From assembly GCF_965641715.1 (NCBI RefSeq), contig NZ_OZ282453.1: 64,000 nucleotides of DNA, one strand, 5' to 3'. Shown one piece after another: positions 44,901 through 47,900 of the stretch. Each line of letters opens with the position of its first letter. Within the stretch, counting starts at the first letter, position 1. The DNA is from Escherichia coli. GTDB lineage: Bacteria; Pseudomonadota; Gammaproteobacteria; Enterobacterales; Enterobacteriaceae. Position numbers: made by a program.

Positions 44901-47900
44901 GCAACTTACTGAAGCAAAATATAATCTTGAGCAGACTGTCATTCGCGCACCAAGCAATGGCTACGTCACTCAGGTACTGATCCGCCCAGGCACATACGCA
45001 GCTGCCTTGCCGTTGCGTCCGGTGATGGTTTTCATCCCCGAGCAAAAACGGCAAATTGTCGCCCAATTTCGGCAAAACTCGCTGTTACGTCTGAAACCTG
45101 GTGATGATGCGGAAGTGGTGTTTAACGCGCTACCTGGGCAGGTGTTCCACGGCAAACTGACCAGTATTTTACCTGTCGTGCCAGGCGGTTCTTATCAGGC
45201 GCAGGGGGTATTGCAATCATTAACGGTCGTGCCCGGCACGGACGGTGTGCTGGGAACCATTGAACTGGACCCTAACGATGATATCGATGCCTTACCCGAC
45301 GGCATTTACGCCCAGGTGGCAGTTTACTCCGACCATTTCAGCCATGTTTCGGTGATGCGGAAAGTGCTGCTAAGAATGACCAGCTGGATGCATTATCTTT
45401 ATTTGGATCATTGAGACTTATATCACCTGTGTTTTGCGTGAGCCTGAGCCATACTGATATTTTTCCTCGCACAAAGGACTCGGCATGAAACTCGTCGGTA
45501 GCTACACCAGCCCGTTTGTACGCAAACTTTCTATTCTGTTGTTAGAAAAGGGCATAACTTTCGAATTTATTAATGAACTGCCCTATAACGCGGACAACGG
45601 CGTGGCGCAATTTAACCCGTTAGGAAAAGTGCCGGTGCTGGTGACCGAAGAGGGCGAATGCTGGTTTGATTCGCCGATCATCGCTGAATATATTGAATTA
45701 ATGAATGTCGCTCCGGCGATGTTGCCGCGCGATCCGCTGGAGTCGTTGCGGGTGCGCAAAATTGAGGCACTGGCGGATGGCATTATGGATGCCGGGCTGG
45801 TATCGGTGCGTGAACAGGCGCGTCCAGCGGCGCAGCAGTCTGAAGATGAATTGTTACGCCAGCGGGAGAAAATCAACCGTAGTCTGGATGTGCTGGAAGG
45901 ATATCTGGTCGATGGCACACTTAAAACCGATACGGTCAATCTGGCGACGATCGCCATTGCCTGTGCCGTCGGATATCTCAATTTCCGCCGCGTTGCGCCA
46001 GGCTGGTGTGTCGACCGCCCACACTTAGTCAAACTGGTCGAAAACCTGTTTAGCCGCGAAAGTTTTGCTCGCACCGAACCGCCAAAGGCTTGATGCGCGA
46101 TATGTCCTCCTGACCCATCTCACGTTACAATCCGTGGTTATGTTAAACGCCCTTCTCCGTGTGAGAGGGCCTTGATCAGCCAGGTTTCCTATGACAACCG
46201 AAACGCGTTCCCTCTATAGTCAACTTCCGGCTATTGATCGCTTATTGCGCGATAGCTCCTTCCTTTCTTTGCGTGATACTTATGGTCACACCCGCGTGGT
46301 GGAATTGCTGCGTCAGATGCTTGACGAAGCGCGAGAAGTGATTCGTGACAGCCAGACGCTTCCCACGTGGTGTGAAAACTGGGCGCAAGAAGTCGATGCC
46401 CGGTTGACGAAAGAGGCGCAGAGCGCGCTGCGTCCGGTGATAAACCTGACGGGAACCGTGCTGCATACCAATCTTGGGCGAGCTTTACAGGCGGAAGCTG
46501 CGGTGGAAGCCGTTGCGCAGGCTATGCGTTCGCCAGTGACCCTCGAGTACGATTTGGACGACGCCGGACGCGGACATCGCGATCGGGCGCTGGCGCAGCT
46601 GCTGTGCCGCATTACCGGCGCGGAAGATGCCTGTATCGTTAATAACAATGCGGCGGCGGTGTTATTGATGTTGGCGGCCACTGCCAGCGGGAAAGAGGTG
46701 GTGGTTTCTCGCGGCGAATTGGTGGAGATTGGCGGCGCGTTTCGTATTCCCGATGTTATGCGTCAGGCAGGCTGCACACTATACGAAGTAGGGACCACCA
46801 ACCGCACGCACGCGAATGATTATCGTCAGGCGGTGAATGAAAATACCGCACTGTTGATGAAAGTACATACCAGTAACTACAGCATTCAGGGGTTCACCAA
46901 AGCGATAGACGAAGCTGAACTGGTGGCGCTCGGCAAAGAGCTGGATGTTCCAGTGGTGACTGATTTAGGCAGTGGCTCGCTGGTCGATCTTAGCCAGTAC
47001 GGTTTGCCGAAAGAGCCAATGCCGCAGGAGTTGATTGCGGCGGGCGTCAGTCTGGTGAGCTTCTCCGGCGACAAGTTGTTAGGCGGGCCGCAGGCAGGGA
47101 TTATCGTTGGTAAAAAAGAGATGATCGCCCGCCTGCAAAGCCACCCGCTGAAGCGTGCATTACGCGCGGATAAAATGACCCTCGCGGCGTTGGAAGCCAC
47201 GTTGCGTCTTTATTTACACCCTGAAGCTCTGAGTGAAAAATTACCGACCCTGCGCCTGCTTACCCGCAGCGCAGAGGTCATTCAAATCCAGGCACAACGT
47301 TTACAGGCTCCCCTTGCCGCACATTACGGCGCGGAGTTTGCGGTACAGGTTATGCCATGTCTTTCGCAGATTGGCAGTGGTTCGCTGCCGGTTGATCGCC
47401 TGCCGAGCGCGGCATTAACGTTTACACCCCATGATGGACGCGGTAGCCACCTTGAGTCATTAGCCGCCCGCTGGCGTGAATTGCCAGTGCCGGTGATTGG
47501 TCGTATTTATGACGGACGATTGTGGCTGGATTTACGCTGCCTTGAAGATGAGCAACGGTTTTTGGAGATGTTGTTGAAATGATTATTGCGACTGCCGGAC
47601 ACGTTGACCACGGCAAAACAACCTTATTGCAGGCGATTACTGGCGTAAATGCCGATCGTCTGCCGGAAGAAAAAAAGCGCGGCATGACTATCGATCTCGG
47701 CTATGCCTACTGGCCGCAGCCGGATGGCCGCGTGCCTGGTTTTATCGACGTACCCGGTCATGAAAAGTTTCTTTCCAACATGCTGGCGGGCGTTGGTGGT
47801 ATCGATCACGCGCTGTTGGTGGTGGCGTGCGATGACGGCGTGATGGCACAGACCCGTGAGCATCTGGCGATTTTGCAGCTGACCGGTAACCCGATGCTGA

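Follow-up and report, generated by a model that had tools for sequence, protein, structure and literature searches.

The adjacent genes selA and selB of Escherichia coli, apparently cistrons of one operon, are joined by a four-nucleotide overlap in which the start codon of selB lies over the stop codon of selA, and the translation of selB is probably coupled to that of selA. The geometry of this junction (NTGA, spacing -4), its start codons, and its conservation are established here; we infer the cotranscription of the two genes, the coupling itself, and its regulatory use. The junction lies in a window of 64,000 nucleotides, a segment of the E. coli chromosome that extends from waa to yia and takes in secB, lld, mtl, and selAB. 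Stop/start overlaps, like their connection with translational coupling, belong to textbook knowledge, and surveys have covered them in hundreds of genomes.

The selA/selB junction

The genes and signals at the junction are as follows (SD, Shine-Dalgarno; strength was calculated as the energy of the duplex with the anti-SD at the 3' end of 16S rRNA).

46191..47582, + strand: selA, L-seryl-tRNA(Sec) selenium transferase, 463 aa, stop codon TGA at 47580-47582 (ORF list, projection of RefSeq CDS)
47579..49423, + strand: selB, selenocysteine-specific elongation factor, 614 aa, start codon ATG at 47579-47581 (ORF list, alignment of homologues)
47579..47582, + strand: ATGA, selB start ATG over selA stop TGA, spacing -4 (direct reading, junction table)
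47564..47570, + strand: SD-like GGAGAUG in the 3' end of selA, -6.4 kcal/mol with the anti-SD

Positions 47579-47582 indeed read ATGA, as the original prediction held, and the coordinates match those annotated by RefSeq in near-identical E. coli genomes (CDS identity 99.3% for selA and 98.9% for selB). Both genes are orthologous to their namesakes, and the homologous loci carry the SelA (PF03841) and SelB Pfam domains. The locus is present in 5425 of 5426 E. coli genomes, with the same RefSeq coordinates in essentially all of them. The selB start is immovable, since the stretch from the upstream in-frame stop to the GTP-binding P-loop (G7HVDHGKT) offers no start codon other than ATG 47579; the next possible start, TTG at +48, falls past the P-loop. 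An alignment of 150 diverse SelB representatives places their residue 1 opposite residue 1 of the E. coli protein, with few exceptions. The spacer between the GGAG core and the selB ATG is long, at 11 nt. Having an SD-like motif of its own, selB could also be initiated de novo, which counts against coupling.

The selAB operon and its transcript are named as such in the literature, and the two genes are probably cotranscribed. The region upstream of selB contains no convincing internal promoter or terminator. Promoter-like matches to the consensus number four, with 2.7 expected by chance, and an internal selB promoter was rejected on these grounds. Sequestration of the selB site in RNA structure was also dropped: the fold of the junction is no stabler than that of shuffled sequence (z = 0.03), and the opening energy of the ribosome-binding region, 8.0 kcal/mol, is close to the window median of about 8-10. 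In this window, such energies are alike for overlapping, closely spaced, and leader genes. As the selB site is no more structured than average, the variant of coupling that relies on RNA unfolding is unsupported here. The literature surveyed, which did not extend to the original selAB operon studies, yielded no direct test of selA/selB coupling.

The NTGA junction is retained in Klebsiella and in all three distant SelB representatives considered (42-55% identity). In a wider genome scan, about a quarter of 80 loci proved to be EF-Tu-like GTPases rather than SelB and were removed by a coverage filter. Among the 32 lineages with selA directly 5' of selB, 16 (up to 19) have NTGA, and these span Proteobacteria, Bacillota, Actinomycetota, Binatota, and Campylobacterota. 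This frequency exceeds an overlap baseline of 15-30% (p = 3.5e-6 to 0.014, without phylogenetic correction). Across these lineages the SelA tail ranges from -3 to +26 aa and is not conserved in sequence, four to eight SelB residues precede G-T-A-G-H, and selB starts with ATG, GTG, or TTG. The overlap is nonetheless dispensable, as selA and selB lie 51 nt apart in Photorhabdus, the closest relative in the scan, and 42-141 nt apart in four other lineages. It is quite possible, if short of probable, that the junction is actively maintained across phyla and not just inherited, with selB translation having to be slaved to that of selA, for instance to pass on the feedback that SelB exerts at the selA ribosome-binding site or to set the SelA:SelB ratio. 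The ratios of SelA, SelB, and tRNA(Sec) are critical for selenoprotein expression. We found no explicit report of cross-phylum conservation of this junction in the literature surveyed.

A further element of possible relevance lies in the selA leader.

46136..46181, + strand: 46-nt imperfect hairpin, with its end 1 nt upstream of the selA SD's AGG (minimum free energy fold)

According to secondary literature that cites Thanbichler and Bock (2002), SelB represses selAB translation through a SECIS-like leader element. The predicted hairpin, located just before the selA SD where that account would place the element, is a candidate for it; an Rfam scan of 45400-49700 gave no matches, so that family models lend the candidate no support. 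The operon is the same and the hairpin is at the expected place. The control described in the literature acts at selA initiation, whereas its reach to selB through ATGA would be an extension proposed here.

Other stop/start junctions in the window

Nine further overlaps are found in the window.

5569..5572, + strand: ATGA, waaQ stop/waaG start, spacing -4 (junction table), the only start in the first 15 waaG codons
6686..6693, + strand: 8-nt overlap of waaG and waaP, spacing -8
25790..25794, + strand: TGATG, one-base overlap of secB stop with gpsA start, spacing -1
29611..29614, - strand: ATGA, lldR stop/lldD start, spacing -4
30385..30389, - strand: TAATG, one-base overlap of lldP stop with lldR start, spacing -1
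40083..40087, - strand: TAATG, one-base overlap of mtlD stop with mtlR start, spacing -1
61584..61590, - strand: 7-nt overlap of sgbU and sgbE, spacing -7
62437..62444, - strand: 8-nt overlap of sgbH and sgbU, spacing -8
63096..63099, - strand: ATGA, lyxK stop/sgbH start, spacing -4

The original prediction assigned the ATGA arrangement of selA/selB to five other pairs. This is correct for waaQ/waaG; secB/gpsA, lldP/lldR, and mtlD/mtlR share a single base instead, and the transporter/GH127 pair is separated by a gap. Two of the pairs had been named in reverse, as lldR/lldP and mtlR/mtlD; on the minus strand lldP precedes lldR and mtlD precedes mtlR. Five overlaps in the window, including waaG/waaP, lldR/lldD, and lyxK/sgbH, were absent from the earlier list.

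Exact -4 spacing is observed for four pairs (selA/selB, waaQ/waaG, lldR/lldD, and lyxK/sgbH) and exact -1 spacing for three (secB/gpsA, lldP/lldR, and mtlD/mtlR). Both counts are far above chance, as 0.19 pairs of each type are expected under uniform placement of stops. The window itself is not unusually rich in overlaps, a suggestion that we rejected: spacings of -8 to +6 nt occur in 14 of its 42 same-strand pairs, compared with 24% across the E. coli genome (p = 0.10). Stop/start overlaps of this kind are a known, ordinary feature, and the four-base NTGA overlap is the commonest way in which neighbouring bacterial genes abut. The downstream genes differ in their SD motifs, which are strong for lldD, sgbH, sgbU, and sgbE and weak for waaG, lldR, and gpsA; mtlR has none (-0.1 kcal/mol).

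The transporter/GH127 junction

Judged by domain content, the GH127 (beta-L-arabinofuranosidase-like) gene and the MFS transporter gene form a glycoside hydrolase family 127 cassette. Next to the gene with the GH127 catalytic, middle, and C-terminal domains is one for an MFS_2 transporter, and the cassette includes an AraC regulator; PF07944, PF20736, and PF20737 are found in all listed GH127 homologues, and the RefSeq names agree.

58409..58424, - strand: MFS transporter/GH127 junction, with stop TAA 58424-58422, SD TAAGGAG 58424-58418, and start ATG 58411-58409
58433..58435, - strand: upstream in-frame ATG, source of a false 14-nt overlap, SD energy +0.4 kcal/mol, that is, none

An overlap of these two genes at 58422-58435 had been taken as support for their co-expression. 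It is an artefact of choosing the longest ORF. The start at ATG 58435 was rejected, as it lacks an SD and disagrees with the RefSeq start (ATG 58411), with the lengths of homologues (649-656 aa without the 8-aa extension in all 120 listed clusters), and with the related genomes: Klebsiella has the same +10 junction in the same gene context, and Salmonella has no in-frame ATG upstream of the GH127 start. The upstream ATG is accounted for by the C-terminal His-Val codons of the transporter (CAT GTx). Correction of the start to the conserved ATG 58411 removes the overlap and leaves an intergenic gap of 10 nt (58412-58421), and the overlap-based argument for the cassette therefore fails by the refuting condition that the original prediction itself had set.

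Co-expression stands on other evidence. The GH127 SD overlaps the transporter stop, with AAGGAG followed by a 6-nt spacer and the ATG; the junction contains no promoter-like or terminator-like site; and among E. coli pairs with gaps of +9 to +12 nt, 194 of 201 that have been characterised are on one transcript. Together with the 10-nt gap and the Klebsiella junction, this makes it likely that the transporter and GH127 genes are cotranscribed. The pair resembles the +9 to +12 nt class (203 of 2,987 unidirectional E. coli pairs; Huber et al., 2023), whose members nearly always share a transcript, in a gap that holds the spacer of a strong SD and has no room for a promoter or terminator. It differs from the overlap class in having no overlap, so that initiation would be expected largely de novo at TAAGGAG, and coupling may be weaker or context-dependent.

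Overlap, coupling, and alternative explanations

Reviews and experiments indicate that coupling is most efficient at -4 or -1 stop/start geometry and falls steeply with distance. In reporter tests, four of five native E. coli ATGA pairs were strictly coupled, whereas bioBF overlaps yet is uncoupled; overall, 13 of 14 tested overlapping pairs were coupled. Depletion of the ribosome recycling factor (RRF) leaves coupling unchanged, a result that speaks against reinitiation as the principal mechanism in E. coli. Genome-wide, relative translation varies as much in overlapping as in non-overlapping pairs. The ribosome density of gpsA is 19-fold below that of secB, and their translation efficiencies differ 7.5-fold. 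Disruption of secB is polar on gpsA. The supplement of Burkhardt 2017 includes secB and gpsA and excludes selA, selB, mtlR, lldR, and waaG, presumably owing to expression too low for its read-depth criteria. The step from overlap to coupling in the original prediction is reasonable for selA/selB, waaQ/waaG, secB/gpsA, lldP/lldR, and mtlD/mtlR, given their -4 or -1 geometry; the overlap only permits coupling, as bioBF and secB/gpsA demonstrate. For these pairs it makes coupling plausible, short of proof.

The closest counterparts are the tested pairs hyfHI, astDB, ydbH/ynbE, as well as menDH (2019/2023), which are co-directional, have -4 or -1 spacing, and carry an SD in the 3' end of the upstream gene. 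Their geometry equals that of selA/selB, waaQ/waaG, lldR/lldD, and lyxK/sgbH (-4) and of secB/gpsA, lldP/lldR, and mtlD/mtlR (-1). They were examined with premature stops and transcript controls, whereas the window pairs are known from the geometry of their sequence. Overlaps are enriched among genes encoding subunits of the same complex, whereas SelA and SelB are not known to be such subunits. In classical coupled cistrons such as trpB-trpA and galT-galK, stop and start likewise overlap or abut and upstream translation promotes downstream translation; the degree of coupling in these depends on the pair and is modest (1.7- to 7-fold in a reporter assay).

An alternative, which we consider unlikely, is that the overlaps are neutral by-products of compaction and mutational ease, with the downstream genes initiated independently and without functionally relevant coupling. 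The -4 motif is easy to evolve: the start codon gives three of the four bases, a following A completes NTGA, and loss of a stop extends the upstream ORF to the next one. The uncoupled bioBF, the equal variability of translation in overlapping and non-overlapping pairs, and the disparity between secB and gpsA despite their common base fit this explanation, as do the good SD motifs of selB, lldD, sgbH, sgbU, and sgbE and the selA-selB gaps in some lineages. However, the NTGA of selA/selB is kept across phyla amid change, and the non-conserved SelA tails, with up to 26 extra residues, never gain an earlier stop. De novo initiation is also hard to explain for mtlR, which lacks an SD, and for waaG and lldR, whose SDs are weak; the polarity of secB disruption on gpsA and the 13 coupled pairs point the same way.

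It is far less probable that the overlaps are annotation artefacts, the true downstream starts lying further 3'. Precisely this happened at the transporter/GH127 junction, and when the candidate starts of downstream genes were checked for in-frame alternatives and SDs, such alternatives were found for gpsA (ATG at +21) and mtlR (+51 and +63). None of these has an SD, however, and within 15-24 codons waaG, lldD, and sgbH offer no other start. The selB start is fixed by the P-loop and the alignment of homologues, and the RefSeq annotation adopts the overlapping starts.

Coupling of selB to selA is the preferred explanation. A ribosome finishing SelA would halt at UGA when the selB AUG is already within or near its P site, and selB initiation would be favoured either through the same ribosome or subunit (termination-reinitiation) or through passing ribosomes that keep the site unfolded; the GGAG 11-15 nt upstream would help in both cases. 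The likely benefit is that selB output tracks selA translation. In that case SelB would restrict its own output as well, through the SelB-dependent repression at the selA ribosome-binding site (the SECIS-like hairpin). Elsewhere in the window, the -4 and -1 junctions (waaQ/waaG, lldR/lldD, lyxK/sgbH, secB/gpsA, lldP/lldR, and mtlD/mtlR) probably represent the same ordinary device with pair-specific strength of coupling; transporter/GH127 belongs to a different ordinary class, with a 10-nt gap and a strong SD of its own.

The GH127 case illustrates that longest-ORF start calling creates false overlaps, a matter of annotation hygiene, and secB/gpsA that an overlap by itself is no ground for assuming equimolar or coupled expression. 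The persistence of the selA/selB junction across phyla is a small hint at translational tuning of the output of the selenocysteine machinery, which may be of use in engineered selenoprotein expression.

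Overlapping junctions in the window

The original prediction extended the ATGA arrangement of selA/selB, in which the downstream start overlaps the upstream stop by 4 nt (spacing -4), to five further junctions as evidence of translational coupling. Among the window's 42 same-strand adjacent pairs, counted with RefSeq-equivalent starts, overlaps occur at the following junctions.

Same-strand overlaps, with the duplex energy of the Shine-Dalgarno (SD) sequence at the downstream start
5569-5572, waaQ/waaG: ATGA (-4); waaG SD -3.8 kcal/mol, weak
waaG/waaP: 8-nt overlap
25790-25794, secB/gpsA: TGATG, one-base overlap (-1); gpsA SD -4.1 kcal/mol, weak
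lldP/lldR: TAATG, one-base overlap (-1); lldR SD -3.1 kcal/mol, weak
29611-29614, lldR/lldD: ATGA; lldD SD -8.5 kcal/mol, strong
40083-40087, minus strand, mtlD/mtlR: TAATG, one-base overlap (-1); mtlR SD -0.1 kcal/mol, none
47579-47582, plus strand, selA/selB: ATGA; selB SD -6.4 kcal/mol, GGAG 11 nt from ATG
63096-63099, lyxK/sgbH: ATGA; sgbH SD -7.7 kcal/mol, strong
sgbH/sgbU: 8-nt overlap; sgbU SD -11.3 kcal/mol, strong
sgbU/sgbE: 7-nt overlap; sgbE SD -10.3 kcal/mol, strong

The ATGA of waaQ/waaG is as predicted. At secB/gpsA, lldP/lldR and mtlD/mtlR the genes do overlap, but by a single base rather than in ATGA, and the orders given as lldR/lldP and mtlR/mtlD were reversed; these three pairs fall within the two commonest spacing classes, -4 and -1. 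The prediction also omitted five overlaps: lldR/lldD, lyxK/sgbH, waaG/waaP, sgbH/sgbU and sgbU/sgbE. Two convergent pairs, waaH/yibQ (14 nt, 20394-20407) and yiaV/yiaU (4 nt, 54473-54476), have overlapping 3' ends; here translational coupling is impossible.

A uniform distribution of stops over -20 to +200 nt predicts 0.19 pairs for each exact spacing, whereas four are seen at -4 (p = 5e-5) and three at -1 (p = 1e-3). This excess is the known genome-wide pattern and no local peculiarity: in the E. coli genome 707 of 2,987 unidirectional pairs (24%) have spacings of -8 to +6, with -4 the commonest, compared with 14/42 in the window (p = 0.10), and 4/42 window pairs lie at +9 to +12, compared with 6.8% genome-wide (p = 0.32).

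The segment is chromosomal, with 97-99.7% identity to many strains by BLAST against complete E. coli genomes, and its gene order is radC, rpmBG, the waa core-LPS cluster, kbl-tdh, secB-gpsA, lldPRD, mtlADR, selAB, yiaY-aldB and the yia/sgb region. The RefSeq CDSs of four near-identical genomes, projected onto it, are all full-length and in frame with a single stop, save two genes irrelevant here. By comparison with loci L002 and L004, two blocks known from other E. coli strains are absent at 45415-45484 and 50765-50928: the Rhs/yibA/immunity block found between yibH and yibF in ETEC6335 and a Fic-family gene found between yiaY and aldB in ETEC6335 and PapRG-06-5. The most divergent gene is a YadA-like trimeric autotransporter ORF (1629 aa, 32469-37358, minus strand), whose match in the closest annotated genome reaches only ~94% identity and covers the C-terminal part alone (the last ~3,350 of 4,632 nt there).

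From overlap to coupling

Junctions of the selA/selB type have the geometry of the translationally coupled class; co-transcription and coupling itself are predicted for these pairs. Whether overlap implies coupling receives a qualified yes in the literature. Huber et al. found 13 of 14 overlapping pairs strictly coupled; of the five native E. coli ATGA pairs among them four were coupled and bioBF was not, with a variable SD contribution. Coupling drops steeply as distance grows. A review attributes the abundance of -4 spacings probably to the ease with which they evolve, and Burkhardt et al. report relative translation efficiencies equally variable in overlapping and non-overlapping pairs. Saito et al. 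observed that coupling is unaffected by depletion of ribosome recycling factor (RRF), a result that speaks against reinitiation as the chief mechanism.

One window pair, secB/gpsA (25325-26811), has published ribosome-profiling data (Burkhardt 2017 supplement): ribosome density is 1983 for secB and 104 for gpsA, mRNA 939 and 370, and translation efficiency 2.11 and 0.28. Two genes sharing one base here differ 19-fold in density and 7.5-fold in efficiency. secB disruption is nevertheless polar on gpsA; an overlap therefore permits dependence without giving equal output. The 2.5-fold fall in mRNA level across this junction points to differential stability or partial termination. The overlapping starts differ widely in SD strength (-0.1 to -11.3 kcal/mol), and mtlR is the window's best candidate for obligatory coupling to its upstream gene. 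The overlaps belong to a well-described class, are already known and hold nothing surprising to a specialist; the selA/selB overlap is of low interest as a discovery.

The transporter/GH127 pair

The minus-strand junction between the MFS transporter and the glycoside hydrolase family 127 (GH127) gene reads CGT CAT GTA CAG CCT TAA GGAGCACAAG ATG. The 14-nt overlap proposed at 58422-58435 requires GH127 to begin at ATG 58435, the start of the longest ORF, for which no SD was found (+0.4 kcal/mol). The alternative, ATG 58411, lies 6 nt behind TAAGGAG (-8.4 kcal/mol) and corresponds to the 656-aa RefSeq form, 10 nt beyond the transporter end. Among the matches listed, all 120 of 120 GH127 homologue clusters (from Salmonella, Klebsiella, Kluyvera, Kosakonia, Citrobacter, Enterobacter and Scandinavium) have 649-656 aa, and their N-terminal alignment shows no variation at Met9 of the long form. 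Klebsiella michiganensis has the identical transporter-TAAGGAG-ATG junction with a +10 gap. In Salmonella, GH127 occurs without the transporter; the SD and ATG are kept, and the ATG further upstream lies in a different reading frame. The upstream ATG of E. coli and Klebsiella belongs to the transporter's C-terminal His-Val codons (CAT GTx). The corrected start at ATG 58411, of the kind that the original prediction itself named as able to overturn it, removes the overlap, and the pair lacks the defining stop/start arrangement.

The overlap therefore no longer supports co-expression of the two genes, but co-expression is still likely, because the 10-nt gap is too small for a promoter or terminator (none was seen at the junction) and has the +9 to +12 spacing at which 194 of 201 characterised E. 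coli pairs are polycistronic.

The AraC-MFS-GH127 cassette (56441-60863) sits between yiaT and sgbE and is present in roughly one in four E. coli genomes (1256/5426 at at least 80% coverage). Klebsiella michiganensis (L007 522-4962) carries the same cassette, flanked by sgbE and, on the other side, selB/selA; Salmonella enterica (L006 1922-4956) keeps AraC and GH127, with the transporter reduced to a 3' remnant (agccttaaggag). Since these genera carry the cassette or part of it, it seems to be an ancestral feature of the family that K-12-like strains have lost, and not a recent insertion.

The selA/selB junction and its conservation

Features of the selAB locus
46125-46130, plus strand: TACAAT, a -10-like hexamer upstream of the hairpin
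46136-46181, plus strand: 46-nt imperfect hairpin, ending one base before the AGG of the selA SD
46191-47582, plus strand: selA (L-seryl-tRNA(Sec) selenium transferase), stop TGA at 47580-47582
47579-49423, plus strand: selB (selenocysteine-specific elongation factor), start ATG at 47579-47581

The junction reads ...GTTGTTGAA ATGA TTATTGCG..., and the predicted overlap is borne out by both the sequence and the selB start codon. The selB start is not open to correction, because ATG 47579 is the first start codon after an in-frame stop, the next candidate (TTG at +48 nt) lies past the P-loop G7-H-V-D-H-G-K-T, and residue 1 aligns with residue 1 in nearly all of the best 150 SelB representatives (35-55% identity). 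Shuffled sequence folds as well as the junction does (z = 0.03), and the window's junction classes have similar predicted opening energies at their ribosome-binding regions, so a variant of coupling through RNA unfolding is unsupported at selB.

The leader hairpin matches no Rfam family. The literature describes a SECIS-like element at this leader position, used by SelB to repress selAB translation. Such control, if confined to the selA initiation site, would reach selB most simply through the ATGA junction.

ATGA is kept in Klebsiella. In three distant SelB representatives (55, 47 and 42% identity) a 4-nt overlap with the immediate upstream gene, identified as SelA by Pfam (two) or tblastn (one), is found in 3/3. 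A SelB-alignment scan with one genome per species gave about 60 SelB loci; together with Klebsiella and the distant representatives, these yield 32 lineages with selA directly upstream of selB.

Spacing of selA and selB in 32 lineages (NTGA, the -4 motif with N any base)
NTGA (-4), unambiguous: 16
NTGA possible, start ambiguous: 3
-1: 2-3
-7 to -11: 3
0 to +20: 2-3
+42 to +141: 5, Photorhabdus (+51) among them

The NTGA lineages span Gammaproteobacteria, other Proteobacteria, Bacillota, Actinomycetota, Binatota and Campylobacterota. In the 16 unambiguous ones the SelA tail extends -3 to +26 residues beyond the conserved core with unconserved sequence, SelB has 4 to 8 residues ahead of G-T-A-G-H, and selB starts with ATG, GTG or TTG. 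The geometry persists while the surrounding SelA tail, SelB N-terminus and start codon change. NTGA exceeds the 15-30% overlap baseline (p = 3.5e-6 to 0.014), although these values overstate independence, since they take no account of common descent or of horizontal transfer of the sel cluster. In Photorhabdus caribbeanensis (L011 ~2450-2501), whose SelB ranked closest in the one-genome-per-species scan (61% identity), the overlap has been lost, the selA TAA lying 51 nt ahead of the selB ATG; the overlap is therefore dispensable within Enterobacterales. Active maintenance of the junction across phyla for regulatory reasons is a tentative reading, to which we give slightly less than an even chance. 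The cross-phylum conservation is the one result here that goes beyond the textbook, and it would be of modest interest if the maintenance reading is true.
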